DNA from: Planctomycetota bacterium
Lineage (GTDB): Bacteria; Planctomycetota; PLA2
DNA length: 64,000 nucleotides
Direction of reading: 5' to 3'
Assembly: GCA_021776785.1 (NCBI GenBank)
Contig: JAJFFF010000043.1
Coordinates: 4,196 to 68,195 of the forward strand
A program made the translations under genes and the position numbers. The notes beneath the pieces are model-generated. The model made no database searches. It was not told the DNA's origin and worked only from the letters and a program-made list of their open reading frames with translations. Below are positions 9,191 to 58,282 of this stretch, one piece after another. Within the stretch, counting starts at the first letter, position 1. Each line of letters begins with the position of its first letter.

Positions 9191-9195
9191 AAAAA

Positions 9196-9226
9196 CCCCA
9201 ATGCGGTACCGGGTTGGATTTTTTCG
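9196..9226 (+). terminator. Terminator-like hairpin plus T-run (left arm of a perfect 31-bp inverted repeat pair), immediately downstream of the pccB stop
   Basis: Sequence ccccaatgcggtaccgggttggattttttcg: imperfect stem ccaa..cggtaccg..ttgg around the palindromic core CGGTACCG, followed by TTTTTT. Begins 6 nt after the pccB TAA. Confidence 0.5.
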
Positions 9227-9440
9227 TCCATAAAGCATTGTTTATTAGGGGGTTACAGCGACGAGGTGCGGCAATTTTGTCGCACTTTGGACGCCTCGCG
9301 AGGCGAAGTGACAGGGCGCTGTCGTCTAGAACCGAAGCGTGGGGCTTTTCTCGGCCTCGCGGCGTGGCACAGGCGCCTAAATTGCGTCACCAATGCCGCA
9401 TGTTGACGTCATAACATCTTATGGAATAACGCTTTAGAAC

Positions 9441-9471
9441 CGAAAAAATCCAACCCGGTACCGCATTGGGG
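9441..9471 (-). terminator. Terminator-like hairpin plus T-run on the minus strand (right arm, exact reverse complement of 9196-9226), downstream of the pdxH stop
   Basis: cgaaaaaatccaacccggtaccgcattgggg is the exact reverse complement of 9196-9226. Read on the minus strand it gives the same hairpin followed by TTTTTT, 20 nt after the pdxH stop. Confidence 0.5.
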
Positions 9472-9490
9472 AGGTGCCGCAATGCGGGGG

Positions 9491-10129: not shown

Positions 10130-10375
10130 GCGTCAAGCGTACGCGGGGCGCGGCGCGACCTCCAGCCCGGGCCGCTCCGAAAGAGAGCCGGACGCCCCGG
10201 CGACCGCGCGCGGCGCCACGGGAGGAACCGAACGCCTCGCCGGCAAGCGATATCCGACGGAAAAAGCGTGAGGCCAACGACTTACGGCGGCGACCGTGAG
10301 CTTATTCACGCGCGGCGGGCGCAGGCCGGATAGTTGTGCCGTGGCGATTCGGGTGTGGTTTGCTAACTTCCCGCG

Positions 10376-11890: not shown

Positions 11891-12408
11891 AGTATTACGC
11901 GAAAGTCGGCGCGCGCGAGTTTGAATGCACGATGTCTGAGGATGACGGAGCGTTGTTTGTCGAGGTGGACCAAACGCGCTACCGCGTCGATCTCGCCCAC
12001 ATCGAAGCGTCCGCGTCGTACACGCTGCTCGTGGACGGACGCTCGTACGAGTTTGCGTTGCACGAAGATGAAGACGGGATCGAACTCTCGGGCGGCGCTG
12101 GGTTGTTTCGCGTGTGCGTCGAGGACGCGCGCACCCACGCGGCGCGCGCGATGGTCAGCGCCGCGGGAGGGCCGGCGGGGCCGCGCCTCGTCAAAGCCGC
12201 GATGCCCGGAATCGTTCGTGAATTGCTCGTCGAGGACGGCGCGGTCGTAACGAAGGGCCAACCGCTTCTGATTCTGGAAGCGATGAAAATGCAGAACGAA
12301 ATTCGCGCGGATGGCCCGGGCACGGTCACCCGGGTGCACGTCAAGGCGGGCGCCACGGTGGTCAAGGGCGAAAAGCTCCTCGAGCTTGAATCGCCGCCGT
12401 CGCCGTAG
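11887..12408 (+). CDS. Biotin carboxyl carrier protein (biotin/lipoyl attachment domain)
   Basis: Start at ATG 11887 (MKYYAK), overlapping the accC stop. C-terminal biotinyl domain with the EAMKM biotinylation motif (ILEAMKMQNEIRA). The ORF-track start at 11725 lies inside accC in another frame. Confidence 0.8.
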   Translation: MKYYAKVGAREFECTMSEDDGALFVEVDQTRYRVDLAHIEASASYTLLVDGRSYEFALHEDEDGIELSGGAGLFRVCVEDARTHAARAMVSAAGGPAGPRLVKAAMPGIVRELLVEDGAVVTKGQPLLILEAMKMQNEIRADGPGTVTRVHVKAGATVVKGEKLLELESPPSP

Positions 12409-12498
12409 CGCACCGGGTACGCCGCACCCACGTTCGCCCGGGCTTGCAGGCGCCCACCGAATCTGACACGTACGGGCGGATCCTCGTACTCTATAGAT

Positions 12499-39113: not shown

Positions 39114-39971
39114 CTATGGCGAAAACACCGAGTGGAACTCGAAGACGGCTTCCATCGAGATCATGAACACGGTGGTCGAGCTAAACACGACGATCCAGGT
39201 GGCCCACCGCGGGAGGCGCAATCGCCCGGCGACGGCTTGGGTTGCGAAAAACAACGTTTGGACGCCGAGGAGTTCTGGGACGGCGGTCCAGAACAGATAT
39301 TCGTGCAGCAAAGCGCTGTAGGTGAACCCGGCGATGAGACCGCGATTGGGGTGGCGCGCTCCGCCGATGGGTCGATAGATGTTGTCTTTGAGCCACAGGT
39401 GCACCATCAAATCGAACCGCGCCCAAAAATCGAGCACGCTGCGGGCGCGCAAAACGTGGCGGAAAAACCCATCGACTTTCCAGCCGCCGATTGCCATCAC
39501 GCCGACGATGAGATCGCTCGCTCCGCCGATGCAAAAAAAGATCTCCCACACTTTGAGGCAGTGGCTCAAAAACCACGCGCGGTGGTCGAGATCGAAGTGG
39601 GCGCCGAGATAGATCAACGCGAGACCGATCCCAAACCGCGGGGCGGCGCGCCACAGTTCGGGAACGACGGTCGGGCCGTCATGTCGTCGGAACGCGCGCG
39701 GCCACGTCAGCGTGTTGGGCCACACAAAAAAAAGCAGGTAACGACGAACCGTGAACGCGGGCCGCCGGCGCAAGAGATCCACGCTCTTGGCGCAGATCGT
39801 CGCGGCGAAGACGGCCAGTCCCCAGCGCGGCAACTTTGCGAGTTCGTCGAGCTGGAGTGGCGCCGCCAACGCGCATGCCCAGAGCGGAAGGCCGAACGCC
39901 CAGTGCGCGCGTCGGCGCACCAGAAAAAACGTCCCGGCGATCGGGACCAGGAGGAGCAGCGTGGCGATCAT
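39114..39971 (-). CDS. MBOAT-family membrane-bound O-acyltransferase (short form)
   Basis: Motif FWARFDLMVHLWLKDNIYRPIGG resembles the AlgI/DltB MBOAT signature (FWRRWHISL..WFRDYLYIPLGG) with the conserved His. Multiple TM helices. The start ATG overlaps the upstream gene's stop (ATGA at 39968-39971). Confidence 0.55.
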   Translation of the reverse strand: MIATLLLLVPIAGTFFLVRRRAHWAFGLPLWACALAAPLQLDELAKLPRWGLAVFAATICAKSVDLLRRRPAFTVRRYLLFFVWPNTLTWPRAFRRHDGPTVVPELWRAAPRFGIGLALIYLGAHFDLDHRAWFLSHCLKVWEIFFCIGGASDLIVGVMAIGGWKVDGFFRHVLRARSVLDFWARFDLMVHLWLKDNIYRPIGGARHPNRGLIAGFTYSALLHEYLFWTAVPELLGVQTLFFATQAVAGRLRLPRWATWIVVFSSTTVFMISMEAVFEFHSVFSP

Positions 39972-42900
39972 CGCGGCAACGACAATACATCCCCGGCGTC
40001 ATCGCCGTCGGCCGCGTACCCGCCCACGTGGTAGACGTGGTCGCGATAGTTCAAAACGTCGATGAGCGCGAGCGTCTGCACGGCGCGCAACGTGACGATC
40101 TGTTCGCTGATGCGTTCCGGGTGACGCATCAGGTCCGCAAGGACAGCCCGGCCCTCCGTCACGGCCTGTTCACCGCACTGATTCCAGTACCGCAAAGCGT
40201 CAGCCGCGCCTTCCACGTTGTGCGACGTCGCGCGCCACGCGGCGCGGCGGGCGTCGGCGTCGTCCACGCCATGCTGCTTCCAGTAGCGCCCGAACTGACG
40301 TCGCCGGCGCCAGCGCGGCCGCCACGAAAACGGTGCGAGTTCGCCCGCGGCCGCGCGGCCAAACACTTCGTCGAGGATTTCGCGTGCGCTGAGCAAGCTG
40401 CGCAGCCCGCGCATGTCGGCCACGTACGCGCACGCCGCCGCGCGCACGCGTTCGCGGTCGTAGCCGCTGTCCTTGAGGATGCGACTGAGGCGGGCCATGT
40501 CGCGCGCGATGCGCTGGCGCTCGGTTTCGAGCTCCCGCTCGAGCTCCGCATCGCCGCCCAGGAACCGGATGTCATCTTGGACGTCTGCGGTTTCGAGACC
40601 GCTTGTTTCGGTGCCCGGGAGGCGCACGCCGCAGTACTCAGGATCGAAGCGTGCACGCATCTTGGTCGCCAGAAGCGCGACGGGACCGCGCATCCGATGA
40701 ATCTTGCGGAGTGCGGTGTAGTAGTCCGCGCCTTCGACGGCATCGAGGTCCACATTGAAGCTCGGCCGACGGATCTCGCCCATGCACCGAATGAGCCACT
40801 TCACGAAACGCACGATGTAGAGCACCACCGCGCGCACGGCGTAGAGCGGAATGAACAGGGCGCGACCATGGGCGAGCCACCGCGAGTAGGCGCGGTACAG
40901 GTTGAGCACGCGTTCTTCGCGCGGGAGTTTATGTAACGGATACGTGCCGAACGTCCGGCGCAATAGATGTCGGCGGTCGCGCTGCATGCGGGCAAGCAAG
41001 TCCGCGCCGAAGCGCAGCCGAATCGTGGCGTCGCGCTGCTCGTCGTCGTCGAGGAAGTGAAGTGCTGTGAACTGGGTAGTGACGTAGACCGTCTGTTCGT
41101 TGGGAATCTCCGGCTCGCCCTCCGCGCGCACCCAGTGTTGGTATTTTTCCATCTCGTCGGGTGTGGAAGCGGCGTGTTGGGAGCGCGGCAGCGCGTTTCT
41201 GTTGTAGTCCACAACGAGGCGCGCCACGCCGTGGGCGATGGATTGACAACCCAGCGCAAACCAGAGGTACGGACCGCGGAGAAACGACTTCTGACGATCC
41301 AAGTCGAGTTTCATCAGCTCCTTGCGGTCTTTCTTTGTGAATCGGTTCGCCATCTTGCGCAGATTGCGGATCGCGAGGTTGCCGAGGAGCTGCGATGTCG
41401 TGCGCGTGTCCGACGAAACAAAAAGCGCGCCGTCGATGCCGTCGCGATACAGCAACACGGTCGTTTCCATCGGGCTAAAGACCCACTCCTTCGCGTCACC
41501 GGCCTGCGCCTCGATGAGCCAGTCCGTCACGCCTTGGACGAAACGTTCCTCGACGTCCTCTTCGATGTGCCCGTGCACGATGCGTTCCGGCCCAAGGACG
41601 CGCCCCTCCATAATGGCAGCGTCGCGCGCGAGGTGGCGTCCCTTGATGGCTTCGGTGAGCGATAGGAACTGTGCTTGCGCGGATTTCTCCAAGAACTCTG
41701 TCGCTTGTCCCGCGATGCGGCGCAGCCACCACCCGAATGCCAGCACAACAATGCAAATTCCGCCGAGGATCTCAATGAAGCTTGTCAGCGAATCGCCGAG
41801 CTTGTCTGCCCATGCCGCGTCGCCGATGAGAGTTCGCACGATGAAAATGAACAGCCCGAACAGGACCAGGCGATACGCCGGCCGGAACGAAGCCTTGATC
41901 ATCGTACGCCCGACGCGGTCCACGAACTGCGCCGGCGTGATGATGCCGTAGAGATCCGCGAACCAGAGCCAGCGTTGGTGCTGGCGCCTTAGTTCCGAAG
42001 CCGACGTTTGGGCGGCCGCGGCCACAACGTCGCCGTCCGTCATCTTCTTGTGCACCGACGGCACGTAGGAGCGCACAAACGGGAGCCAGCGCAGCATGGG
42101 CGACGCGAACAGGCGCACCGCGCGCGCGACACGCGTGACGAAGTCTGCCCCCATCTCGGCTTCGATCTCTTCCGGCGTCACCTTGGACAAGAGATCGAGC
42201 GCCTCTTCGGCGGAGCGATCCCGCGCGATACCGGATTCGGCCGGACGCTGCGTGTGGCGGAGCGGTTTTGTGTCCTTAGAAACTGCCGTCGCCAGGCGTT
42301 GCACGCGCAGCTGCGCAATCGACTCGCGCGTCTCGTCGGGCGCGGACAGGATCAACCGGCGCCAGCGGCGATTGAGGCGCGCTTGGATGCGGTGGACCTG
42401 GACCCCTAACCCCTCGTGGCGCTGGGCCATTTGGTTGCGCTCGGCGCGCGTCGGGTACAGCACGATGTTGCGGTTGAGCACTTCGCCGTACTTGCGGACG
42501 AGGCGGTCGATGCCGCGGCTCAAGAAGCCGAACGCGCGCGCGAAGCGGGCGATGCGCAGCAACCGGACGGCGCGGACGATGCGAATCTTATCCGCGCGCC
42601 GTGCGGCGACGCCGCCGCTTCCGACGGCTAGGTGGAAAAACAGCGCGAAGGGAATCGACGGCACAATGTCCACGAGAAGGTGCCGCCAAAACCACCGCCA
42701 TCGCCCGCGCACGAACACGAGCTTCACGACGATCTCAAAGAGAAAGAACGCGCAGGCGGCGGTGTCGAGGGCCACGAGCCACGTGGGGGGCGGGAGGGCA
42801 GCGCCGGTTTCGGGGTCTAGATCGTTAAGGAAAAACACCTCGACGGCGAGCAGTCCTAAGACGAGCACGATCAACCACAGGATGATCTGGTCGAACTTCG

Positions 42901-43672
42901 CGACGCGTTCGGCGCCGAACCGGAGTTCGAGCCGGTGTTGGAGGTCGCGCTCTTGGAGTTCGGCGGTAAGGCGGCGAATGCGGCGGCGCAAGCGCTTCCG
43001 GCGCCACGATTTATGGGCTTCGACAAACGTTGTGTGCCACGACACGTCGCGCATGACAAGGCGCAAGCGCGCGACGGCTTGGTCGGGATCGACGCCGTCC
43101 ACCGACGCGAGCACGGCGTCCGCGCGATCGAGCAGTTGCGTGGCCCAGTCGTCGCGCGTGTCTTCGCTCGGCGGGTGGGACTCGATCGCGGCGAGCATGG
43201 CGTTGCGCAATTCGGGGCGCACTTCGGCGAGCGGTGACGCGCCCCGCTGCCGCGCGAGAGCTTCGAGGTCGAACTCACGGGCGGACACGATGGCGCGAAA
43301 GCATGCGCGCGGGTCGTTGCGGTCGAGTGGCGCGAGCACTTGCGCGCGCCACGCGTCCGCGATGTCTTGGACGAGCTGATCGACGAGTTCCGTGGACGCT
43401 TGCGCGGCCTGGGGAAGCTTCATGTCGAGGGTTAGGTCGCGCCAACTCGCGAGGTCGGCGAGGATTGGATGGCCGCGGTCGTCGGACAGGTCCGTGCCGA
43501 GCGCGACGAGCGCTCCAATCGTCGCCGTGACATCCGCTTCCGCTGTCGCAAGGTGCTCCGCTTCCGCGAGCGGCTCGGGTTCGGTCGCGCCAAGATGGTC
43601 GTCGATGCGGCGTTCGAGTTCGCGGAAAAGCTCGTCCGCGGCGGAAGGGTCAGCCATCGCCGTCGCCGCCAC
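39968..43672 (-). CDS. Large (1234-aa) membrane protein containing a voltage-sensor-like S1-S4 module and a possible pore-like TM pair
   Basis: S1 (LWLIVLVLGLLAVEVFF), S2 (WLVALDTAACAFFLFEIVVKLVFV), S3 (HLLVDIVPSIPFALFFHLAV) and an S4-like segment with Arg at every third position (RIVRAVRLLRIARFARAFGFL). About 200 aa later a TM pair flanks RTLIGDAAWADKLGDSL. Long soluble N- and C-terminal regions. The M6 start (43657) is an alternative. Confidence 0.6.
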   Translation of the reverse strand: MAATAMADPSAADELFRELERRIDDHLGATEPEPLAEAEHLATAEADVTATIGALVALGTDLSDDRGHPILADLASWRDLTLDMKLPQAAQASTELVDQLVQDIADAWRAQVLAPLDRNDPRACFRAIVSAREFDLEALARQRGASPLAEVRPELRNAMLAAIESHPPSEDTRDDWATQLLDRADAVLASVDGVDPDQAVARLRLVMRDVSWHTTFVEAHKSWRRKRLRRRIRRLTAELQERDLQHRLELRFGAERVAKFDQIILWLIVLVLGLLAVEVFFLNDLDPETGAALPPPTWLVALDTAACAFFLFEIVVKLVFVRGRWRWFWRHLLVDIVPSIPFALFFHLAVGSGGVAARRADKIRIVRAVRLLRIARFARAFGFLSRGIDRLVRKYGEVLNRNIVLYPTRAERNQMAQRHEGLGVQVHRIQARLNRRWRRLILSAPDETRESIAQLRVQRLATAVSKDTKPLRHTQRPAESGIARDRSAEEALDLLSKVTPEEIEAEMGADFVTRVARAVRLFASPMLRWLPFVRSYVPSVHKKMTDGDVVAAAAQTSASELRRQHQRWLWFADLYGIITPAQFVDRVGRTMIKASFRPAYRLVLFGLFIFIVRTLIGDAAWADKLGDSLTSFIEILGGICIVVLAFGWWLRRIAGQATEFLEKSAQAQFLSLTEAIKGRHLARDAAIMEGRVLGPERIVHGHIEEDVEERFVQGVTDWLIEAQAGDAKEWVFSPMETTVLLYRDGIDGALFVSSDTRTTSQLLGNLAIRNLRKMANRFTKKDRKELMKLDLDRQKSFLRGPYLWFALGCQSIAHGVARLVVDYNRNALPRSQHAASTPDEMEKYQHWVRAEGEPEIPNEQTVYVTTQFTALHFLDDDEQRDATIRLRFGADLLARMQRDRRHLLRRTFGTYPLHKLPREERVLNLYRAYSRWLAHGRALFIPLYAVRAVVLYIVRFVKWLIRCMGEIRRPSFNVDLDAVEGADYYTALRKIHRMRGPVALLATKMRARFDPEYCGVRLPGTETSGLETADVQDDIRFLGGDAELERELETERQRIARDMARLSRILKDSGYDRERVRAAACAYVADMRGLRSLLSAREILDEVFGRAAAGELAPFSWRPRWRRRRQFGRYWKQHGVDDADARRAAWRATSHNVEGAADALRYWNQCGEQAVTEGRAVLADLMRHPERISEQIVTLRAVQTLALIDVLNYRDHVYHVGGYAADGDDAGDVLSLPR

Positions 43673-45350
43673 TCCCCTCCGCGTCGTCAGGCCGCGTTCC
43701 GATCACTACCGGCGGCGGCACATCGCGCCCCGTAAACTCGTCGACGATGGCGCGCGCCACTTGGCGTCCGCCGCGGTGCGCTGCCGGCATGGAGTCGTAC
43801 TCTTGGTGCTCCGGCATCTCGCTTTGCACAACATGCAGTGTCTGCGTCGGAAACGCGAACTCGATGCCGAGTTTGTTCGCCAGGCGCAAGATGTCGAGCA
43901 TCAGGCGCTGGCGCTCGCGCAGCTCTGTTGACCAGTCGCCGCAGTTGAAAAACAGATACATCAAGATGTTGAGCGACGACTCTCCAAAGCTATGGAAATA
44001 GACGTGGTAGTAGTCTTTGCGTGTGTACGGATGCAGCCGGATGAGCTCGCGAATGCCCTCCGTGAATGCCGCGACTTTTTGCGGCGGCGTGTCGTACGCG
44101 ATACCGAGTGACTCCTTGCAGCGGCGGTACTTGCGCGCCCCGAGGTTGTCGACCGATGTGCGAATGAGCATCGCGTTGGGAAACGTGATGAGTGAGTTGT
44201 AAAACGTGCGCACGCGCGTCGATCGGAAGCCGACTTCTTCGACCGCTCCTTCGATGCCGCCCGTCTTGATCCAGTCGCCCACCTGAAACGGTTGGTCCGT
44301 GAGAATGCCGACCGCTCCAAAAAAGTTCTCGACCGTGTCCTTGCTCGCCATCGCGATCGCCAAGCCACCGATGCCGAGGCCGGCCAGCAACGCGCTGATG
44401 TTCATGCCGAGGTTATCGGCGATCCACACGAGGCCGAGCACGACGATGAACACTTTGAGCGCGCGCCGCAACATCGGGACGAGCAAGTCGTCAACGCGGT
44501 TGTCCGACCGCTTCGCGAATCCGGCAAAAATATCGCTGGCCCAATCGACGATGCGCGAAAGCGACCAGATCACCGCGACCATCAAGACCAGCCGTGCCGC
44601 GAAGTTTAGGATCTCGTACGTCGTGTCGGACAGGTCGAGGAACGGAATGCCGGCGAGCCAAACCGCGGCCGTCGCGAAGAGCGCGAACGGGCGCCCTGAT
44701 TTTCGATTCGGATGGAACTCGACGTCGCGACGCTCCGCAATCTCGCGTTTCATCGAGCCGATGACAAGCCGCGCGATGAGGCCGGCCATCAGGCCGAGGA
44801 TCGTGATCAATAAGATCCCGAGCCACTGCCAGTTTTGCAAGACGAACGGTTTGGCGAGCATCCACGCGGGGAGGCGCGGCCGCAGCCAACTCGAAAAGCT
44901 GTTCGGCTCTGGCTCCACGCGTTGCTTGTCGCTCGAGACGGCCGCGAAGTAGTCGCTTACGTTTTCGCGCGTGCGCTTCGTAAACACCCAGCCGTTCTCG
45001 CTGAGAACGCACTCGAGCGTGCCTTGCTCTGTGGGGTGAAGATAGATCGCGCCGGTAAACGTCGCGTCCGGAACGTCGGATAGGTCGAGTCGCTTCGTGA
45101 GTCGATCGAGGTAGCCGACGAGATACGCGCCTGCCTTTTGGCCCGCTTGGTGGCGGCGCGCTTCGGGGAGGTCGCTGAGGTCGAAGAGACTCGCGAGTTG
45201 GTCCGGCGTGGCGCTGTGGCGGGCGTCCGCGACCGCCAGGGCCCTCTCGAACAGTGCGCGCGGGCCCTCGTTCGTGGATTGCGCGGCCAAAACGGCCGTC
45301 AGCAATGTGATCCCGATCCCAATCCGCCATGCGCCCAAGTTACGAAGCAT
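43650..45350 (-). CDS. MscS-family mechanosensitive ion channel with N-terminal periplasmic domain
   Basis: Signal/anchor segment, then TM helices and the MscS pore/beta-domain signature (IGGLAIAMASKDTVENFFGAVGILTDQPFQVGDWIKTGGIEGAVEEVGFRSTRVRTFYNSLITFPNAMLIRTSVDN). 566 aa. Confidence 0.85.
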   Translation of the reverse strand: MLRNLGAWRIGIGITLLTAVLAAQSTNEGPRALFERALAVADARHSATPDQLASLFDLSDLPEARRHQAGQKAGAYLVGYLDRLTKRLDLSDVPDATFTGAIYLHPTEQGTLECVLSENGWVFTKRTRENVSDYFAAVSSDKQRVEPEPNSFSSWLRPRLPAWMLAKPFVLQNWQWLGILLITILGLMAGLIARLVIGSMKREIAERRDVEFHPNRKSGRPFALFATAAVWLAGIPFLDLSDTTYEILNFAARLVLMVAVIWSLSRIVDWASDIFAGFAKRSDNRVDDLLVPMLRRALKVFIVVLGLVWIADNLGMNISALLAGLGIGGLAIAMASKDTVENFFGAVGILTDQPFQVGDWIKTGGIEGAVEEVGFRSTRVRTFYNSLITFPNAMLIRTSVDNLGARKYRRCKESLGIAYDTPPQKVAAFTEGIRELIRLHPYTRKDYYHVYFHSFGESSLNILMYLFFNCGDWSTELRERQRLMLDILRLANKLGIEFAFPTQTLHVVQSEMPEHQEYDSMPAAHRGGRQVARAIVDEFTGRDVPPPVVIGTRPDDAEGSGGDGDG

Positions 45351-48054: not shown

Positions 48055-48267
48055 ATCGATACTTTATCGGCAGATCGCCGCGTCCGGCAGCGTGGGGGAG
48101 CGTGACTGCGCTCGCTCGGCTCGATGGGACGAGTGGTGCACGGATTGGTGCCGCGGAAACCGCCTAGATCTAAACTTTTTGTCTCAATGTGGCCCGGCAT
48201 GAGGTTAAACGGGACAAAAAGGGAGCAATCTATTGGTTTGTTCCCGGATCAGCGATAGAGCTTCTAC

Positions 48268-51135
48268 GTGGAATCAGTTCAGCACCAGCTCCGTGACCTA
48301 GTCGCGCTTACCGATTTGCGCGAGCGGGTCCGGTTCGCCCAGGCACGAGTCCGCCAAGGCTTGGGGACCGCGTTGCTCGACGCCGCGCGCAAGCAGATGC
48401 GCGAAGATCCGACCGAGGCCGCCCAATTGGCCCTTTGCGCTCGAGTGGCGGTAACGCGTGAATCATCCGACGAACGAGTCGAAGCCCTTTCGCTCCTTGG
48501 TCAAGCCCAGACCCTCCGTGGGAAGTTTGCCGCCGCGGTCCGCGCCTACGAGCGCGCCATCGAGCGCGCCGTCGCGCAGCGTGACAAGACTCGGCTCCGA
48601 GCCCTGTCCTTGCACGCGCGGATTCACCTTGGTCGCGATGACGAGGTGCGCGCGATTGGCGCCGACTGCCTGACGGCCCTCGCCAAAGATCCCGACCCGA
48701 GGCTGATCGTGTTGACGCGTATGTCCTTGGCCGACCAAGCGTTTCGTCTCGACAATCCGCAGCGGGCGCTCGAGCACTACGCGGCGCTGGCGTCGATTGC
48801 GGCGCAGGCGTCGCCGCAACTGCGCGCCGTGATTGCGTGCAACCGCGCGAACGCGCTGGCGGCTTCTTACTTGTTCGAGGAAGCGGCGGCGAGTTTCGCC
48901 GAAGCGCGCGCGTTGCTGTCTGACGATCGGTTCCGCCACACGCGCGCCCAGGTACAGTCCAACACCGCGTACTTGGAGCTTTCGCAGGGTCAGTATGACG
49001 CGGCGCTGCGCCGCTACGACGACGCGAGCGCGTCGTTTGAGGAGCTCGGCGACGCGCGGCATCTCGCGCTGATCGACTTGGAGCGCGCCGAAGTGCATCT
49101 TCGGTTGAACATGCCGGCGGATGCGACACGACTCGCCGCCGCGGCATCCGCACGCTTTCGCCATCTGGGAATGAAAAAGGAGCATGCCCAGATCGAATTC
49201 GTGCGCGGGCAGGCCCTGCAAGCCCTAGGGGAGGGCCGGCAGGCGTCGGAGACTTTCCAGCTCGCGCAGGAGCTCTTTTTGGCGCTCAGCATGTACGGTC
49301 GCGTCGCGGCCTGCATGCTGCAGCGCGCGTTTCTTGCCTTGAAGCAGGGCGACGCAGATTCCGCCACCGAGCAAGTCGAGCAGGCGTCGATCCTGGTCGA
49401 GAACAGCGACGACGTTTTGTTGGCCGCGCGCGTCGAACTCATGCGCGCACGGCTCGCCGTAGAACGGGGGCTCGACTCCGACGCGACCGTTGCGCTGCAC
49501 GCCGCATCGAACGCGATTGAAGGCATTCACGCTCCGTGGCTCTCCATGGAAATCGATCGTTGGTTTGGGAAAACACGCCGCGCGCGCGGTGATACGCGCG
49601 GCGCGGTGGAGGCGTTTCGCCGCGCGATTGACACGCTGGAATCGTACCGAGGCGGAGTTCCGTCCGACGAGTACATGGCCAGCTTTCTTTCCGCGCGCGC
49701 CGACCTCTACACGGACTGCGTTGAGCTGCTCGTTTCGCTCGGCGAGATCGAGGCCGCCTACGAACTCACGGAACGCGGTAAATCGCGTGCCCTCGTGGAC
49801 TTGCTCGACGGCAAAGTCGGTCGGCCCGACGAACAGGCGCGCGACATGCTCGGCCGCGTCAATCGGTTGCGCGGCGACCTGCACGCGGTCTACAAGCGCC
49901 TCTTTGATCACGACTCCGGCCGTGAACAACGAAGCGCGCGCGCTGTGCGGGAAGCGCGTTCGATGGCCGTTCAAATCGAAGGTGAAATCCACACGTTGTT
50001 GCGCGACGCGCGCCGTGTCGACGCCGAAGCCGTGTCCCTCCAAGACGTGGTCGGTTTGTCCGTCGCCGACGTGCAAGCGACGTTGGACCCCGGTGTTGCG
50101 CTCATCGAGTACGTCACAACCGAGCGCGCGCTGGTCGCCTTCTTGCTCACGCGAGACGACCTGCACGTTGTCGTTTCTGACGTCGCCGAAGCGACCCTGC
50201 GCATGAACCTCGACCGCTTCCGTTTCCATCTCGCAAAATTCGACCGCGACACAAAAGATTCCGGGGACCTCGTCTTGGCGGCGACGCGCGCCAACCTCGC
50301 GCAGCTATCAGAACTGGTGATGGAACCGATGTCGGAGCTGCTCGACGGCGTCGACCGTCTCGTCGTCGTGCCGCACGGCGTGTTGCACGGCGCGCCGTTT
50401 CACGCGCTGCCCCTGGGCGAAGACGGATGGCTGAGCGATCGATTCGAGATCACCTACGCGCCGAGCGCGGCGGTGTATCGTTTCTGCCGCGAACGCGGAG
50501 AGGCGACGACAACCGGGGCCGCCGTGTTTGGCCTGCCGGACGAGTTGGCGCCGCTGATCGAACAGGAAGCGCGCGCGGTAGCGGCGCACTTGGGCACCGA
50601 AAACCTGCACTTGCGCGAAGACGCCACGTTGGAGGCGTTTTCTCGCAACTGTAAAGATGCACGGTTCATCCACATCGCGACGCACGGCATGTTTCGGCCG
50701 GAGCGACCGATGCTCAGCGCCATCCGGTTTGCGGACCGTTGGCTCAATCTCTACGACTTTTATGATTTCACGTTGGACGCCGAACTTGTCGTGCTGTCTA
50801 CGTGCGAGAGCGGGATTGCGGGCGTTACAGCCAGTGACGAAGTCTTCGGACTGACGCGCGGGCTTCTCTATGCCGGCGCCCGCGCGATGGTTACCAGTCA
50901 ATGGCGCGTCAACGACGCAGCGACGACGACCTTCATGGATTGCTTTTATGGCGCGTTGAGTGCGGGCACAAGCCCCGCGGCAGCGATGCAGCAAGCCATG
51001 CGCACCGTTCGAGAAACAAAACCGCACCCGTACTACTGGGCGCCGTTTTTTCTCACGGGTTGGACACAAATGACGCACTCGGGGCGGGGACGAAGGACCC
51101 GCACGAGTTCGACTCTAGTAGCTACGGGAACGTAA
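48268..51135 (+). CDS. TPR-repeat protein with C-terminal CHAT (caspase-like HetF-associated) peptidase domain
   Basis: About 600 aa of TPR-like helical repeats, then a CHAT domain with a caspase-type His/Cys dyad: FIHIATHGMF (His, near 50670) and LVVLSTCESG (Cys, near 50800), followed by LLYAGARAMVTSQWRVND. 955 aa. No signal peptide. Confidence 0.85.
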   Translation: MESVQHQLRDLVALTDLRERVRFAQARVRQGLGTALLDAARKQMREDPTEAAQLALCARVAVTRESSDERVEALSLLGQAQTLRGKFAAAVRAYERAIERAVAQRDKTRLRALSLHARIHLGRDDEVRAIGADCLTALAKDPDPRLIVLTRMSLADQAFRLDNPQRALEHYAALASIAAQASPQLRAVIACNRANALAASYLFEEAAASFAEARALLSDDRFRHTRAQVQSNTAYLELSQGQYDAALRRYDDASASFEELGDARHLALIDLERAEVHLRLNMPADATRLAAAASARFRHLGMKKEHAQIEFVRGQALQALGEGRQASETFQLAQELFLALSMYGRVAACMLQRAFLALKQGDADSATEQVEQASILVENSDDVLLAARVELMRARLAVERGLDSDATVALHAASNAIEGIHAPWLSMEIDRWFGKTRRARGDTRGAVEAFRRAIDTLESYRGGVPSDEYMASFLSARADLYTDCVELLVSLGEIEAAYELTERGKSRALVDLLDGKVGRPDEQARDMLGRVNRLRGDLHAVYKRLFDHDSGREQRSARAVREARSMAVQIEGEIHTLLRDARRVDAEAVSLQDVVGLSVADVQATLDPGVALIEYVTTERALVAFLLTRDDLHVVVSDVAEATLRMNLDRFRFHLAKFDRDTKDSGDLVLAATRANLAQLSELVMEPMSELLDGVDRLVVVPHGVLHGAPFHALPLGEDGWLSDRFEITYAPSAAVYRFCRERGEATTTGAAVFGLPDELAPLIEQEARAVAAHLGTENLHLREDATLEAFSRNCKDARFIHIATHGMFRPERPMLSAIRFADRWLNLYDFYDFTLDAELVVLSTCESGIAGVTASDEVFGLTRGLLYAGARAMVTSQWRVNDAATTTFMDCFYGALSAGTSPAAAMQQAMRTVRETKPHPYYWAPFFLTGWTQMTHSGRGRRTRTSSTLVATGT

Positions 51136-51147
51136 AGGACACTGGGA

Positions 51148-52296
51148 ATGAACATGAACTGGGGACGAATGCGCCAGCTGACAGGAATGTTGGCGCTGCT
51201 TTGTCTTTGTACGCACAGCGTCGAAGCTGGCGATAAAGGCAAGGGGAACAACAAGACGACGGAATCGTCGTCGGACGGCGGGATCAACCCGTCCAACGTG
51301 GCGGTCACCGAGTCGGATTTCGAGGCTTCGAGCTCGCCGAAGGAAGAGTCGACGTCCACCGAGTCGTCGACCTACGACGCGAATGCGGGCTCTTCGCAAG
51401 AGCCGACGCCCAGCGAGCCGTCGACGTACGACGCGAATGCGGGGTACTCGCAGGAGCCGATGTCGCCGGAAGAACAGATGCACATCTACGAGGCGCATCA
51501 GCGCGCAACGGGTAGTGGCGTCGTGATTGCCGTGCTGGATGCCGGCTTCGACGCCGCGCATCCGGCCATCGCAGCCAACGTCGTGGGCGGCTATGACGCC
51601 ATCGATGGCGACAGCGACCCGACGGATTTGGGGAACGGCTGGGACGATGACGGAGACGGCATCGTCGACAATGGCGTCGGGCACGGCACCTTCGTTACGG
51701 GCATGATCTTGCGTGCGGCGCCGGACGCGATGATCGTTCCGATCCGCGTGCGCAACGACGAAGGTTGGGGCAGCAACGACGTGACAGCCGACGGCCTCGA
51801 AATGGCCATTCGCATGGGTGTCGACGTGATCAACATGTCGCTCTCGACCGGCAGCGGCGGGTTCACTCGGATCCGAAGGCTGCTAGCTAAGGCCGAGAGG
51901 CAGGGCATCTTCGTTGTAGTCTCGGCTGGCAACGCGTCAAGCAGCGAGCTCGATGCGCTCGGCAAGATCAAGTCCACGATCGTCGTGGGCGCAGTAGATG
52001 CAACGAACACAGTCGCGACCTTCTCGAACGTGTCGAACACCACTTACTGGATGGTCTACGCTCCCGGCGTCGACCTCCTTGGGCCCACGACGCGTGGTGA
52101 GTACCGCTACTGGAGCGGAACGTCGTTCGCGGCCGGCTTCGTGACCGGCGGCGCGGCGCTCGCGCTGGAAGCACACAAGAACATCGCGCTTTGGGAACTG
52201 CGCCAACTCCTGCGCGATTCGATCGATCCGGTCAAGAGCGCGGACGGCGGCTACATCGACAGTGGTTTGCTAAACCTCGCACAGGTCGTCCGATGA
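51148..52296 (+). CDS. Secreted S8-family subtilisin-like serine peptidase
   Basis: Signal peptide MNMNWGRMRQLTGMLALLCLCTHSVEA. Catalytic triad motifs D (VIAVLDAGFD), H (GVGHGTFVTG) and S (GTSFAAGFVTG). The Ser/Thr-rich pro-region contains a tandem ~57-bp duplication. 12 bp downstream of the CHAT gene. Confidence 0.85.
   Translation: MNMNWGRMRQLTGMLALLCLCTHSVEAGDKGKGNNKTTESSSDGGINPSNVAVTESDFEASSSPKEESTSTESSTYDANAGSSQEPTPSEPSTYDANAGYSQEPMSPEEQMHIYEAHQRATGSGVVIAVLDAGFDAAHPAIAANVVGGYDAIDGDSDPTDLGNGWDDDGDGIVDNGVGHGTFVTGMILRAAPDAMIVPIRVRNDEGWGSNDVTADGLEMAIRMGVDVINMSLSTGSGGFTRIRRLLAKAERQGIFVVVSAGNASSSELDALGKIKSTIVVGAVDATNTVATFSNVSNTTYWMVYAPGVDLLGPTTRGEYRYWSGTSFAAGFVTGGAALALEAHKNIALWELRQLLRDSIDPVKSADGGYIDSGLLNLAQVVR
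51361..51474 (+). repeat. Tandem ~57-bp duplication inside the S8 peptidase pro-region (encodes STYDANAG[S/Y]SQEP twice)
   Basis: tcgacctacgacgcgaatgcgggctcttcgcaagagccg...tcgacgtacgacgcgaatgcggggtactcgcaggagccg: two near-identical in-frame units. Confidence 0.6.
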
Positions 52297-52673
52297 CAGC
52301 GGCGACAATCGCTCTGCCGCAGGGCTGGATCGCCCCGAAACGGGCGATCGCCGCGTCCGGCGTGCGCGGCGGCGGCAGCGAGTTTCAACTCGTTTGCGGC
52401 GTCGGGACCTACGAGCTCGACTTGTTGGTCCGCGACTTTCATGAAGTCTTCGAACTGATGGGCCAAGTCACAGAAGGCGAAAGCATTTATGCACCCGTGC
52501 GCGGGCTGCCCGTGCAACTCGTCGACGCGGATGGAAATCCGATCGGCGAACTTGGATCGACGAACGAGTTTGGTGAATTCGAGTCGAAAGCGGATGAGCG
52601 CGGGCTCATCGGGCTTCGGCTCGGGACGGGCGAGGACGCCCCGTGTGTTCTCGTTAGAGGTGAATCACAATGA
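52293..52673 (+). CDS. Small hypothetical protein with a single CarbopepD_reg-like beta-sandwich (paralog of the next ORF)
   Basis: Start at ATG 52293 overlapping the S8 stop (ATGA). Segment PVRGLPVQLVDADGNPIGELGSTNEFGEFES fits the carboxypeptidase-regulatory-like pattern. 126 aa, no signal peptide. Confidence 0.5.
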   Translation: MTAATIALPQGWIAPKRAIAASGVRGGGSEFQLVCGVGTYELDLLVRDFHEVFELMGQVTEGESIYAPVRGLPVQLVDADGNPIGELGSTNEFGEFESKADERGLIGLRLGTGEDAPCVLVRGESQ

Positions 52674-53029
52674 AAACTATCAAAGCCGTCGTCCGTTTCG
52701 ACTCGGACGCCGAACTGGCGCGTATCGGCACTCGCGGATTTGCGAGCGTGAACACGCGCACGCTGATGTTTCAGGGGGAAGGCATGTCGATTGACGTGCT
52801 GATGCAGGATGCCGGTTCGATGAAGATCATGCACGGCCAAGCTGTGCGGATTCCGGTGGGCGCGCCTGTGGATGACGCAGCGGTCATCGCGGGCGACAAC
52901 GAAGCGCAAACCGATCGCATGGGGCAGTTTGTCCTCTCACTGATGGATTCCCATCACGAGTGCTTTTACGTGCGTCGCGGCGACGTGCAACTGGTCTGCG
53001 AGATACCGCAGGCGCCCGTGCTGCCGTGA
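52670..53029 (+). CDS. Small hypothetical protein, paralog-like to the preceding ORF
   Basis: ATGA overlap with the previous ORF. 119 aa. Same layout as the preceding ORF (SIDVLMQDAGSMKIMHGQA...PVGAPVDDAAVIAGDNEAQTDRMGQFVL). Confidence 0.45.
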   Translation: MKTIKAVVRFDSDAELARIGTRGFASVNTRTLMFQGEGMSIDVLMQDAGSMKIMHGQAVRIPVGAPVDDAAVIAGDNEAQTDRMGQFVLSLMDSHHECFYVRRGDVQLVCEIPQAPVLP

Positions 53030-53052
53030 ACAAGAAGTTAGACGCAAAAAAA

Positions 53053-53799
53053 ATGGCGAGCGCTGGAGCAATGTCCAGCGCTCGCGCGCGTCGTGCGGCC
53101 CAGAACGAAGTCGTCATGCTGAAGGAGCTCTTGGAGCACCAGCAACGCGTGTCGCAGGCCGGCCTGATTACGGCGGCGCTCGCGCATGACGTGGACAACC
53201 ACGCACAGGTGCTGACGGGCGCGACGTTTCTCGCGTTGCGCAGCGACGATCCCGCCGAGTGGCGGCGCGCCTTGGAGATCGTGCAGGAGCGCTGTTTCGC
53301 GATGACCGAAGTCACCCGCTCGTTTCTGGGCTTCTTGCGGCGCAAGGACGTGCATGGGGTAGGAGCTTTCGGGCTCATGCGCGCCGTCAAGGAAGCGCGG
53401 CAACTCGTCGAGCTCCTTGCGAAACAGGAAGACGTGACGCTGAGCGTCGTGGTCGATGACGACGCGAACCTGATGGGCGAGCACCGGGTGCTGGTCCAGG
53501 CATTGGTGAACTTGTTGTCGAATGCTGTGAAGGCTGTCGCCGGTCGAAACGAAGGAGCGGTCGTCTTGGAGGTCACACTCCTGGAAACGGAGGCGCGCGT
53601 TGTTGTGTCGGACAACGGGCCCGGCATTCCCGACGAGATCCGGTCGCGCATCTTCCGGCCGATGGCGACAACCGATGGACACGGCATTGGACTGTTCATC
53701 GTCCGCCAAAACATCCGGCGCCTCGGCGGCTCGATCCGTGTCGAGAGCTCCGATGCTGGAACCACGTTCGAGTTGCGCCTGCCGTTGCTCGACCACTAG
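53053..53799 (+). CDS. Soluble sensor histidine kinase (HisKA + HATPase_c, no TM segments)
   Basis: H-box ITAALAHDVDNHAQVL, N-box VNLLSNAVKA and G-boxes DNGPGIPDEI / GIGLFIV. Start chosen at ATG 53053 (MASAGAM). The ORF-track start at 52960 would overlap the previous gene by 70 nt. No response-regulator gene adjacent. Confidence 0.75.
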   Translation: MASAGAMSSARARRAAQNEVVMLKELLEHQQRVSQAGLITAALAHDVDNHAQVLTGATFLALRSDDPAEWRRALEIVQERCFAMTEVTRSFLGFLRRKDVHGVGAFGLMRAVKEARQLVELLAKQEDVTLSVVVDDDANLMGEHRVLVQALVNLLSNAVKAVAGRNEGAVVLEVTLLETEARVVVSDNGPGIPDEIRSRIFRPMATTDGHGIGLFIVRQNIRRLGGSIRVESSDAGTTFELRLPLLDH

Positions 53800-55033: not shown

Positions 55034-55993
55034 TTAGACGGTTTCTTCGACGGGCGTCTCTAAGATGACCTGCGCGAGACGAGCGTAGTCCTTGGCGCCT
55101 TTTGAATTGGGGAACGCGAACCCGACCGGCGTTCGCATCATGGGCGCGCGCACCAGGTTGGCGTCGGTGCGGATTGGGGCGAGGACGCGATCTTTTAGAC
55201 CGCTCTCAATCGCCGTCAATATCTCGCGCCCGACCTTTAAGCGCCCGTCGATCTTGGTCGGCAAGAACCGAAGGGTGACGCCGCGGTCCAACCGGCTGCG
55301 AATCAGTGCGACGGTGTTGGTTAAGTCGCTAATCGCTTTGATCGAATAGCTCTGTGCTTCGATCGGCACAATCGCCTCGCGGCACGCGACCAGAGCGTTC
55401 ACCGTCACCAGGCTCAGGTTGGGCGGACAGTCGATCACGATGAAATCGAACTGGTCGTGAATCGGCTCCAACTTGCGGTCCAGGATGGTTTCGCGCAAAA
55501 ACGCGTCGAAGATCTTGATCTCGACGCCCGCCAGGCGCGGGCGGGCCGGAATGCACGACAGGCCGGGGAACAGCGTCGCTTGGATGACCGATTGCGCGTC
55601 CATCTTTTCGTCGACGAACAGCTCCTCGACCGAACTCTCATCGTCGGTCAGCTCCAAGCCCAACGATGCCGTGAGGTTGGCTTGCGGATCGAGGTCGATC
55701 GCCAACACGCGGCGTCCGCGCGCGACGAGCGCGCCAGCGAGGTTGAACGCCGTGGTCGTTTTGCCGACGCCGCCCTTCTGATTGACGACGGCGATGCGGC
55801 GATTTTGCGGCCCCTGCATCTGATGCACGATGCGCCGCGCCTCGTCAAAATCGTAGATGCGGTGGTTGGATTCATCGCGCCGGGCGGCCGGGACACGGCC
55901 GTCGGCCTCCCAGTCTCTCAGGGCACGCGACTCGATCCCCGCCATGCGGGCGACCTCGCCAATTGTGAAGTGGGGCTTTATCTTGCGGATCAA
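55034..55993 (-). CDS. ParA/MinD-family P-loop ATPase fused to an N-terminal MerR-type HTH domain
   Basis: N-terminal FTIGEVARMAGIESRALRDWEADGRV...ESNHRIYDFDEARR is a MerR-like HTH. Then the deviant Walker A VVNQKGGVGKTTTAFNLA and ParA-type Walker A' / B (IVIDCPPNL). 319 aa. Confidence 0.75.
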   Translation of the reverse strand: MIRKIKPHFTIGEVARMAGIESRALRDWEADGRVPAARRDESNHRIYDFDEARRIVHQMQGPQNRRIAVVNQKGGVGKTTTAFNLAGALVARGRRVLAIDLDPQANLTASLGLELTDDESSVEELFVDEKMDAQSVIQATLFPGLSCIPARPRLAGVEIKIFDAFLRETILDRKLEPIHDQFDFIVIDCPPNLSLVTVNALVACREAIVPIEAQSYSIKAISDLTNTVALIRSRLDRGVTLRFLPTKIDGRLKVGREILTAIESGLKDRVLAPIRTDANLVRAPMMRTPVGFAFPNSKGAKDYARLAQVILETPVEETV

Positions 55994-56329: not shown

Positions 56330-58282
56330 ATGAACACGCGCGAGGACATCCCATTGCCGACGTTTTTTGTTGTCGAGGACGGTGAGACGACGCAGGTCCG
56401 CGTCGATAAATCGACAATCACGGTCGGGCGCTCGTCCGCGCGCGACATCTACGTCAAAGACATTCGGGTCTCCCGCCACCACTGCACCTTAGACAGCGCG
56501 GGGGACGACCTGCTCGTGCTCGATAAGGGGACGCCGAACGGCACGTACGTGAACGGCGCGCGCGTCGATAAGCAGCCGGTCGTGGCCGGGGATCGCATCG
56601 ATGTGGGCGCCGCGCGCATTTACGTCGAGCGGTTGCCGGTCGAGGAGCAGCGCGAAGAGTCGACTTGGACCGGCGAGGGCGACCGCCTGTACAAGGCCCC
56701 GCTCCCGACCGAACATGATCAGTTGGAGCGTTTGCAACGCATCGCGGCCGCGCTCAACTCCGAGCTCGATCTCGATCGCATCCTCGACCTGATCATGGAT
56801 CACGTCGTTGAAATTGCGCAGGCCGAGCGCGGCTTTTTGGTGCTGAAGTCGGGCGACACGATCACGGTGCCGGTGGCGCGCAACTTCCAGCGCGAAGATG
56901 TCATGCGGCCGGAACAGTCGTTTAGCCGTTCGATCGCCGATCGCGTGGCGCTCGGCGGCGACGCGGTCGTCACGGTCGATGCGCGCTCCGACAACCGTTT
57001 TGCGGAGTTTCAATCGATCCATGAGATCGCGCCGCGTTCGGTTCTGTGTATGCCGTTTCGCGAGCGCGGCCGGACCGTCGGTGTCGTCTACATCGACAAC
57101 CGCATCGCGCGCGGGGTCTTTGGGCGTGAGCACTTGGACGCGTTACAAAGTTTCGCCGACCTCGCCGCGGGCGCGATCTTGCGTGCGCAGGTGGAGCGGG
57201 AGCGCGACAACGCTCTGCTCCGCGTCAAGGCCATGTACGCCGAACTCAAGAACAAGTACGAGGAGCAGGGCGGACGCCTCCAGGAGATGGAGCGTGTGCT
57301 GGAGGCACGCCAAGCGTCACGTTCGACCAAACACGAGTACCCCGAAATCGTGGGCGAGAGCGATGTCATGCGCGCCGTGCTGGCGTTGCTCGACAAAATT
57401 GTTGCTTCCGACGAGACCGTCCTCATCGAAGGCGAGAACGGAACCGGTAAGGAGCTCATCGCGCAAGCGATCCATCGCAATAGCCGCCGGCAAAAAGGGC
57501 CGTTCATTGCGGAGAACGTGGCGGCGATCCCAGAGACTTTGGTCGAGAGCGAACTGTTCGGTCATACGCGCGGATCGTTCACCGGCGCGGACCGCGACAA
57601 ACGCGGGCTGTTCGAGCAAGCCGACGGCGGCACGCTGTTTCTCGATGAGGTCGGCGACATGCCGCTCGACGTGCAAAAGAAGCTGTTGCGCGTGCTCGAG
57701 ACGCGCGAAGTGCGCCGCGTCGGCGGCAAGGACACGATCAAGGTGGACGTGCGGATCATCTCCGCGACCAACCGTGACCTGCGCCGCATGGTGGAGGAGA
57801 ACGATTACCGCGAGGATCTGTTCTATCGCCTGCGCGTTCTCGCGATCGAGCTCCCGTCGCTGCGGGAGCGGCGTGGCGATGTCGCGCTTCTCGCGACTCA
57901 TTTTCTCCAGTCCCACGCCCCGAAGGGGGGCCGCGGCAAACAGATGACGTCGGCCGCGTTGAAGGCGATGGAGGCCTACCACTGGCCGGGCAACATCCGC
58001 GAGCTACAAAACGAGGTCCGTCGGCTGGTCACGTTTGCCGGGGACGTGATTCACGAGGAGGACCTGTCGGATCAGGTGCGGCAGGGGCCCCGCGCGTTCG
58101 CGGGCGTTCCGGGCGATTCCGACGAAGTTAGGAATCTGGACCAACTTGTCCGACAAGTAGAAGTGGACGAGATCCGCAAAGCGCTGGCTCTGGCGAGTAA
58201 TAACAAGACAAAGGCCGCCAAGATGTTGGGCATCTCGCGCTTCACACTTCAACGGAAAATGGAAAAGTACAACCTCGGATGA
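56330..58282 (+). CDS. Sigma-54-dependent transcriptional activator with N-terminal FHA and GAF domains (Fis-type HTH C-terminus)
   Basis: FHA ([25 protein letters not shown]...[10 protein letters not shown]), a GAF-like region, AAA+ sigma54-interaction motifs GENGTGKE, the GAFTGA-equivalent GSFTGA and ESELFGH, and a C-terminal Fis HTH ([19 protein letters not shown]). 650 aa. Confidence 0.9.

Follow-up and report, generated by a model that had tools for sequence, protein, structure and literature searches.

A cassette of a TPR-CHAT protease, a subtilase, two small beta-sandwich proteins and a histidine kinase in Planctomycetota belongs to one family with clusters carrying an ECF sigma factor

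The 64-kb stretch of Planctomycetota DNA analysed here (contig JAJFFF010000043.1; hereafter the window, in whose numbering positions are given) carries at positions 48268-53799 a cassette of five genes, which encode a caspase-like protease composed of tetratricopeptide repeats (TPR) and a CHAT domain, a subtilase predicted to be exported (Peptidase_S8, hereafter S8), two small beta-sandwich proteins, named here sm1 and sm2, and a soluble histidine kinase. The cassette is confirmed to be real and conserved, and it is firmly shown to form one family with gene clusters of other bacteria, in which a homologous TPR-CHAT protease is encoded together with a sigma factor of the extracytoplasmic function (ECF) type and an anti-sigma-like protein (hereafter sigma-type clusters). 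We interpret the cassette, with about as much confidence as doubt, as a sigma-less, kinase-coupled offshoot of this widespread cluster for regulatory proteolysis, in which a signal-gated CHAT protease would act on sm1 and sm2, and these in turn on the kinase. Protease-based signalling, proposed already in a first-pass annotation of the window, is the best reading of the cassette. The features of the locus are as follows.

48055-48267, no strand: presumed promoter region, the divergent intergenic segment of 213 bp that separates the CHAT gene from tpiA on the minus strand, from the map of open reading frames (ORFs) and the sequence
48268-51135, plus strand: TPR-CHAT protease, 955 amino acids (aa), cytoplasmic, from Pfam CHAT and TPR models
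51148-52296, plus strand: predicted exported subtilase (Peptidase_S8), 382 aa, from Pfam (E 4.5e-43) and the translation
52293-52673, plus strand: sm1, 126 aa, standalone beta-sandwich, from alignments, hhalign and an AlphaFold2 (AF2) model
52670-53029, plus strand: sm2, 119 aa, paralog of sm1 by hhalign and alignments
53026 or 53053 to 53799, plus strand: soluble sensor-less histidine kinase consisting of DHp and CA domains only, about 248-257 aa, from HATPase_c (2.7e-24)
53056-53085, no strand: hairpin with a 12-bp stem, from the terminator scan and RNA fold

The ORF map and the translations place all five genes on the plus strand, co-directional and tightly packed as the first-pass annotation had described them. 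Its 12-bp gap between the CHAT and S8 genes and its ATGA overlaps at the S8/sm1 and sm1/sm2 junctions were found again, while its gap of about 20 bp before the kinase gene is doubtful: start-codon context gives two candidate starts for the kinase, ATG at 53053 and GTG at 53026, the latter forming a GTGA overlap with the sm2 stop codon. Because the kinase may begin at GTG 53026, every junction of the cassette could be coupled. Internal promoters or terminators, which that annotation had named as evidence against a common unit, were sought in a promoter/terminator scan, and none convincing was detected on the plus strand within the cassette. The G+C content is even throughout the region, and the five genes are probably co-transcribed.

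The closest CHAT homologs, with 44-55% identity, come from metagenome-assembled genomes (MAGs) labelled Planctomycetota (taxon labels of related loci are those given by the depositors). The order of the cassette recurs in at least 13 other loci with 40-55% protein identity, and the flanks differ where visible. The locus L001, for instance, has CHAT-S8-134 aa-121 aa-kinase within flanking genes different from those of the window, L004 has the same five genes between ORFs that gave no Pfam hit, and L002 reads gmk-CHAT-S8-sm1-sm2-sm1-sm2, with no kinase gene in the remaining 318 bp of the contig. Metagenome contigs were scanned with the sm1 alignment alone (13 sequences), so that the linkage was tested independently of CHAT, and 10 of 10 loci show (CHAT)-S8-sm1-sm2-(kinase) as far as the contig extends. 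The conservation of the neighbourhood, a check proposed in the first-pass annotation, was thus observed, and its description of a TPR-CHAT protein with an intact His/Cys dyad, of an S8 peptidase with a D/H/S triad and a probable signal peptide and of a soluble, orphan kinase agrees with the domain analysis given below.

The TPR-CHAT protein passes the gathering score of Pfam CHAT (PF12770; 199.9 bits, cutoff 24; E 7.9e-59, residues 676-931), and is also matched by the TPR_12, TPR_1 and TPR_2 models. Its catalytic dyad consists of His806 (FIHIATHG) and Cys846 (LSTCESG), and the dyad, the loss of which in orthologs had been named as a reason to reject the prediction, is kept in 83 of 84 members of the CHAT family; the protease looks active as judged from these residues. 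In the AF2 model (23-sequence alignment; pLDDT 86.8, pTM 0.83) residues 2-584 build a TPR superhelix of about 29 helices, after which the same polypeptide continues into the CHAT domain (about residues 600-931). Foldseek ranked separase, Craspase Csx29 and DdvA as the best structural matches (E 1e-14 to 1e-12), indicating an architecture of the separase/craspase type. The nearest solved relatives of the CHAT domain by sequence are type III-E TPR-CHAT proteins, and the similarity of the TPR part to NprR and RapI is generic (E about 5e-5). Inspection of the translation gave no signal peptide, transmembrane (TM) helix or H-x3-C-x2-C motif at the N-terminus.

Two relatives of this protein differ in make-up. 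P0012, of 1245 aa, carries a zf-HC2 anti-sigma domain, a TPR region and CHAT fused in one protein, a DdvA-like architecture that further ties the CHAT family of the window to anti-sigma factors. In Planctomycetota bacterium OFTM341 (L005:9109-12450), a CHAT homolog of 37% identity has lost the dyad (His to Arg, Cys to Thr); its neighbours at 5600-13637 read DAHP synthase-tpiA-yicC-gmk-CHAT, and a GT4 glycosyltransferase gene follows where S8, sm1, sm2 and the kinase would stand. This locus is a relic of the cassette at the syntenic site.

For identification of the wider family, the CHAT alignment was scanned over GTDB with one genome per species. At least 587 stretches encode TPR-CHAT relatives, of which the best 80 were taken; all of these 80 are near-full-length CHAT homologs (about 950 aa, about 30% identity), and most carry the cluster. 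They belong mostly to Acidobacteriota, and also to Chloroflexota, Methylomirabilota, Verrucomicrobiia, Rubrobacter and Planctomycetota. The neighbourhoods of a total of 84 loci were profiled with home-made hidden Markov models from the first loci on naive ORFs, with a cross-check against curated libraries for a few loci; many of the 84 are closely related acidobacterial MAGs, and the following counts do not represent independent events.

ECF sigma gene just upstream of CHAT, often overlapping the CHAT start: 71/84 loci
Anti-sigma-like protein of about 210-250 aa: 76/84 loci
S8 gene downstream of CHAT, most with intact H/S motifs: 75/84 loci
HD-domain gene after S8: 35/84 loci
Co-directional ATP-binding cassette (ABC) importer upstream of the sigma gene, with two ATPases, two permeases and an SBP_bac_5 protein: 48/84 loci

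The commoner gene order is Opp-sigma-CHAT-anti-sigma-like-S8-HD, and the second is sigma-anti-sigma-like-CHAT-S8, as found in the actinobacterial Rubrobacter locus L073. At the locus L003, the sigma factor matches the ECF model TIGR02937 (82.7 bits against a cutoff of 42.9), and the curated calls (Pfam, NCBIfam) include S8, an HD-GYP-like protein and a binding protein closest to Opp4A, NikA and DppA. An importer of the Opp/Dpp type stands directly upstream of the ECF sigma gene among L003-L083, for example at L003:240-5691. This linkage was recognized through a candidate that had to be rejected: the bipartite 'promoter' TGGGA-N17-TGAT seen ahead of the sigma genes was in fact part of the preceding SBP_bac_5 gene, where it encodes the conserved C-terminus of the binding protein.

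The anti-sigma-like protein is soluble, without TM segment, and its N-terminal half contains H-x3/4-C-x2-C in 56 of 71 cases. When the profile of this N-domain was compared with PDB, three of the top four matches were to the anti-sigma domains of DdvA (1.1e-3), RsiW (1.5e-3) and RslA (0.026), and Pfam zf-HC2 matches 2 of 36 members; these similarities, weak but consistent, point to a zinc-binding anti-sigma domain.

The small proteins of the window are related to the other half of this protein. Neither sm1 nor sm2 gave a Pfam hit at E<=0.1, and the direct BLASTP comparison between them was not significant (E 0.23). Profiles of the two families, each an alignment with positional orthologs from related loci, were matched by hhalign with 94.5% probability (E 7.7e-8), and by this profile-profile comparison sm1 and sm2 are paralogs. 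The AF2 model of sm1 (3-sequence alignment) is all-beta, with pLDDT 61.7 overall, 70-84 in the core and below 50 for residues 1-34, and its best PDB/Foldseek matches are generic beta-sandwich domains. The first-pass annotation had described the two as paralogs resembling single CarboxypepD_reg-like domains, of which the paralogy stands by hhalign, though not by direct BLASTP, and so does the beta-sandwich; the CarboxypepD_reg assignment finds only sub-threshold matches among the orthologs (1.6e-5 and 1.7e-4; 22-26 bits against a cutoff of 32). The gathering score of CarboxypepD_reg (PF13620/PF13715) is not reached by sm1 or sm2, and 7 of 36 anti-sigma-like relatives match at E<=0.01; we consider the resemblance real and the membership not established.

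BLASTP of the 231-aa anti-sigma-like protein of L003 against orthologs of sm1 and sm2 gave 2.5e-5 and 2e-3, respectively. When 56 anti-sigma-like proteins were aligned with the small proteins, common motifs were revealed over about 130 residues (FDS...AGVRS...RQLLY.AG.Y.IDL...GQV...TN.FGEF), and against the anti-sigma-like profile hhalign gave E 1e-13 for the sm2 family and E 1.3e-27 for the sm1 family, the latter value being inflated by five zinc-finger-sm1 sequences included in that profile. On these alignments and profiles, sm1 and sm2 are firmly shown to be homologous to the anti-sigma-like protein's C-terminal domain. The homology offers a concrete answer to the question, posed in the first-pass annotation, of a role as substrates, inhibitors or adaptors; this homology, and the apparent descent of the cassette from a cluster of the ECF sigma/anti-sigma type, had been missed there. 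At the N-terminus sm2 retains the 'FDS...G-x-R' motif of the anti-sigma-like proteins, in place of which sm1 has WIxPxR; the N-terminal segment of sm1, flexible as judged from its low pLDDT, contains the conserved motif W-I-x-P-x-R...G-x-R-G-G.

Since word-indexed searches yielded 3 hits for sm1 and 1 hit for sm2, an exhaustive profile search was needed, by which 178 relatives of sm1 were identified in two size classes: proteins of about 110-145 aa, like sm1 of the window, and proteins of about 177-193 aa with an N-terminal HLxxGCxxC domain. The zinc-finger-sm1 proteins occur even in loci of the S8-sm1-sm2-kinase type (L085-L087, L089), and therefore the zinc-finger loss from sm1 is probably recent and repeated within the sigma-less clade. 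In the window, both sm1 and sm2 are without the N-terminal H-x3-C-x2-C domain, and neither belongs to the ZAS/zf-HC2 anti-sigma factors. In relatives sm2 invariably follows sm1, and L002:6766-8280 carries two consecutive sm1-sm2 pairs (130, 116, 141 and 118 aa) with 4-bp overlaps throughout.

The kinase matches HATPase_c (86.2 bits against a cutoff of 26.4, E 2.7e-24), while the Pfam HisKA model itself gave no match. Six orthologs retain the H-box (AHDxxN) together with the N, G1, F and G2 boxes, and the PDB relatives of the kinase are ThkA, FixL and ZraS. Because the similarity among orthologs starts only about 20 residues ahead of the H-box, the kinase is considered to be without a sensor domain; intact and lacking a sensor of its own, it needs a partner. 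By phmmer seeded with CheY, a search of limited sensitivity, no REC domain was detected in the window, L001, L002 or L004. Neither a sigma factor nor an Opp gene was detected in the latter three loci. Orthologs of the sensor-less kinase are confined to the sigma-less form.

The subtilase matches Peptidase_S8 with 148 bits (cutoff 21.8), and its translation contains the triad motifs LDAGFD, GHGT and SGTSFA; the closest PDB sequences are subtilisin BPN' and thermitase (about 1e-30). The protein consists of a predicted signal peptide, a Ser/Thr/Glu-rich linker and the catalytic domain, with no I9 propeptide. By inspection, the N-terminus MNMNWGRMRQLTGMLALLCLCTHSVEA resembles a Sec signal peptide, and most orthologs also have an N-terminal hydrophobic segment; S8 is thus predicted to be exported. 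The linker contains a tandem repeat of 54 bp (51344-51464, 2.2 copies, 83% matches), which encodes two copies of a motif like STYDANAG(S/Y)SQEP; linkers of S8 orthologs are other acidic low-complexity sequences, such as a poly-Asp run in L001. A direct proteolytic cascade between S8 and CHAT was ruled out, because S8 is predicted to lie outside while all other components are cytoplasmic.

As to the direction of evolution, we infer that the sigma-bearing form is ancestral and the cassette of the window derived, because the former is much more widely distributed and zinc-finger remnants are present on some sm1 orthologs. In the lineage of the window, the sigma factor would have been lost, the beta-sandwich domain duplicated into sm1 and sm2, and a kinase taken up in place of HD-GYP; the zinc-finger domain on sm1, kept in some relatives, would have been lost in the window.

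Three known systems share parts with this family. In the genomic context of ECF54, a protein with a CHAT domain is accompanied by a subtilase and by a 'carboxypeptidase', which is CarboxypepD_reg-like (Huang et al. 2015; PMC8999054, section 3.3; PMC7826278); proteolytic regulation of ECF54 was proposed from synteny only and has never been tested experimentally (PMC8999054), and for ECF54 and ECF58 no putative anti-sigma factor was recognized by Casas-Pastor et al. (PMC7826278). All three types of ECF54 partners are present in the window, which differs in having no sigma gene (as judged with a sigma profile) and in carrying a second small paralog and a histidine kinase; in the family described here, the CarboxypepD_reg-like protein bears an N-terminal H-x3/4-C-x2-C weakly like the domains of DdvA, RsiW and RslA. 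The likeness of the related loci to ECF54 is by gene context, the sigma factor of L003 meeting only the general ECF model TIGR02937. The combination of genes in the window does appear uncharacterised, as the first-pass annotation supposed, but to call it an unknown combination would be too strong, since the parent combination is catalogued as ECF54 context (PMC8999054; PMC7826278). In the literature searched, no paper was found on the Opp linkage, the zinc-finger nature of the 'carboxypeptidase' protein or the sigma-less kinase-coupled form.

In the type III-E Craspase, the substrate cleaved by Csx29 is Csx30, an inhibitor that binds the ECF-type CASP-sigma (PMC10028731). The sigma-type clusters resemble this system in combining a cytoplasmic TPR-CHAT protease with an ECF-type sigma factor and a putatively sigma-inhibiting protein, and Csx29 is among the closest solved relatives of the window protein (sequence E 4e-7 to 2.5e-6; fold E about 1e-13, TM-score up to 0.57). 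In contrast to Craspase, the window has no Cas7-11/gRAMP, CRISPR, homologs of Csx30/Csx31 or sigma factor, its TPR part is about twice as long as that of Csx29, and the activating signal cannot be a target RNA. Membership in the Csx29 family was rejected: the NCBIfam model NF041237 gave 33.8 bits, far short of its cutoff of 300, genes of the housekeeping type flank the cassette, and no CRISPR-repeat family of Rfam was matched in the window. A type III-B SAVED-CHAT protease cascade is reported in a preprint that also treats sigma factors (bioRxiv 10.1101/2023.06.23.546230). DdvA is a transmembrane anti-sigma factor, the periplasmic part of which is a TPR-CHAT domain (PMC11506125). In this system, too, a TPR-CHAT module is connected with a zinc-binding anti-sigma domain and with an ECF sigma factor, and both the fold match of the window TPR-CHAT (E 5e-13) and the hit of the anti-sigma-like N-domain profile to the DdvA domain agree with this likeness; here, however, TPR-CHAT is separate and cytoplasmic, and the anti-sigma-like partner is soluble, without TM segment. 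A fusion of the DdvA type was rejected for the window protein, which has no H-x3-C-x2-C, TM helix or signal peptide.

The anatomy of the cassette and the analogy to Craspase, DdvA and separase allow the following mechanism to be proposed. The long TPR array of the cytoplasmic TPR-CHAT protein would sense a signal. Since S8 appears to be exported and Opp is linked in relatives, a peptide-related signal is suggested; the likeliest signal would be a peptide, with S8 involved in producing or processing it outside the cell. The activated CHAT protease would then cleave or release sm1/sm2, the candidate site being their conserved G-x-R/K motif in a probably flexible N-terminus, sm1/sm2 would switch the sensor-less kinase on or off, and the kinase would hand the signal to an unlinked response regulator.

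Several points weigh against this mechanism. Within the 64 kb of the window, neither a sigma factor nor an Opp gene nor a response regulator was found by single-sequence searches of limited sensitivity, and the links from CHAT to sm1/sm2 and from sm1/sm2 to the kinase would be drawn from analogy. The absence of the zinc-finger from sm1 and sm2 of the window means that no classical anti-sigma action is possible, and its retention on sm1 in the sigma-less loci L085-L087 and L089 hints at a sigma factor elsewhere and thus at a different wiring. The conservation of the FDS/G-x-R motif could reflect a structural role instead of cleavage, proteins of the SBP_bac_5 family bind nickel and opines as well as peptides, and S8, as the only component predicted to be exported, may be simply an output. 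The 84-locus neighbourhood scan, furthermore, rests on home-made profiles and naive ORFs.

An extension of the mechanism to the wider family is tentative and rather doubtful: the family could be a hitherto unrecognised peptide-sensing pathway, in which the subtilase makes a peptide, Opp imports it, the TPR array binds it and CHAT cleaves the zinc-finger anti-sigma protein. In the lineage of the window, the sensor-protease would have exchanged the sigma factor for a two-component kinase as its target, sm1/sm2 serving as a portable adaptor. Its logic would be RRNPP-like with a caspase output. RRNPP signalling of Firmicutes employs the receptors Rap, NprR and PlcR, Opp import and extracellular processing of the subtilisin type, and the sigma-type cluster likewise has a subtilase that appears to be exported, an importer of the Opp family and a TPR receptor in the cytoplasm, but the output of the receptor here is a caspase-like protease and not a phosphatase or a DNA-binding domain. 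No genes of the Opp type were found in the window, and no propeptide gene was identified, no systematic search for propeptides having been made.

The exported subtilase can also be read as the end product of regulation. The TPR-CHAT/sm module (or sigma/anti-sigma in relatives) would then be only the regulator of a protein-foraging regulon, in which S8, together with Opp in relatives, serves extracellular proteolysis and peptide uptake and the kinase or HD-GYP is a second output, S8 not being the signal source. Predicted export, the co-directional ABC importer of the peptide type in 48 of 84 relatives and the ordinary subtilisin-like nature of S8 all fit this proposal, as does the notion of Casas-Pastor et al. 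(PMC7826278) that genes conserved next to those for ECF sigma factors can include targets in addition to regulators. We nevertheless hold it to be rather unlikely, as the window has neither Opp nor a sigma factor to drive such a regulon, and as the tight translational coupling of S8 with a sensor-less kinase and two anti-sigma-derived domains would be left unexplained; the two proposals overlap, since imported peptides could feed back on the TPR sensor. Less probable still is that sm1 and sm2 act on the protease itself, as pseudosubstrate inhibitors or chaperones of TPR-CHAT, with the kinase or an unlinked protein as the true substrate. The fold matches separase, which is itself held by securin, two paralogous small partners are always co-encoded, and a conserved motif with basic residues lies in the low-confidence N-terminal segment; the homologous domain of the sigma-type cluster, however, is fused to an anti-sigma-like domain beside an ECF sigma factor, which is explained more simply by a substrate or adaptor that transmits the signal.

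A role in defence, toxin activation or cell fate, suggested as a possibility in the first-pass annotation, is not borne out, and we regard anti-phage defence or abortive infection, with CHAT and/or S8 as the toxic effector, as very improbable. CHAT proteases do act in cascades linked to type III CRISPR (PMC10028731; bioRxiv 10.1101/2023.06.23.546230), DdvA controls a defence island (PMC11506125), and weak matches in PADLOC-DB were obtained to BovA (6.9e-9, 33 bits) and 'subtilase' (9e-20, 69.5 bits). These matches, however, span the catalytic domains only, with none for sm1, sm2 or the kinase, and membership in a defence system was rejected, no system-specific models having matched the components; the score with the Csx29 model, given above, is likewise far below its cutoff. 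The flanking genes, all on the minus strand, are of the housekeeping type (tpiA, secG, yicC and gmk upstream, DAHP synthase downstream), no Rfam family, CRISPR repeats included, was matched in the whole window, no relatives were found in viral contigs, and what accompanies the relatives is a sigma/anti-sigma pair, an ABC importer of the nutrient type and HD-GYP. That five unrelated genes stand together by chance is hardly credible: the mixed cellular locations of the products might be expected in this case, but the order is kept in the at least 13 other loci, recovered in independent searches that started from CHAT and from sm1, and stop and start codons overlap at the junctions, so that chance is already contradicted by the neighbourhood data.

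The TPR-CHAT relatives form a scattered yet sizeable family. Non-CRISPR TPR-CHAT proteases are abundant in bacteria, and for almost none of them is a substrate or a signal known. The beta-sandwich domain, free or fused to an anti-sigma-like domain, is here pinpointed as a candidate substrate or adaptor, within a defined set of partners in which the exported subtilase is joined by either a kinase or a sigma factor, and the coupling of one protease-sensor to two different outputs represents a natural experiment. If the family is ECF54-like, the ECF54-type sigma factors, listed without an anti-sigma factor, would have one, as our finding suggests. If the proposed mechanism is true, caspase-like regulated proteolysis, as known from separase and Craspase, would extend to ordinary bacterial signal transduction.

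Upstream of the cassette, a scan with the sigma-70 consensus detected no promoter in 48055-48267, and no upstream motif common to five sigma-less loci was found. Window positions 48225-48260 and L084:~205-245 share the stretch ATTGGTTTG...TTC(A/C)GGA...CAGCG, located 25-45 nt before the CHAT start codon, which may be a candidate regulatory site; L084 is the closest relative of the window, and the stretch was not seen in more distant loci. Near the other end, the hairpin has 9 G-C pairs in its stem, directly follows ATG 53053 and is preceded by a run of A8, and the fold of the 81-nt segment 53020-53100 gave -37.8 kcal/mol (z -3.4). In the minus-strand direction it has the appearance of an intrinsic terminator, inside the kinase gene and about 800 nt past the end of the DAHP synthase gene.

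Beyond these, four genes of the window, without obvious tie to the cassette, encode an ion-transport-domain protein of 1234 aa (39968-43672, minus strand), a channel of the MscS type (43650-45350, minus strand), a fusion of MerR-HTH with a ParA-like ATPase (55034-55993, minus strand) and an FHA-GAF-sigma54 activator (56330-58282, plus strand).

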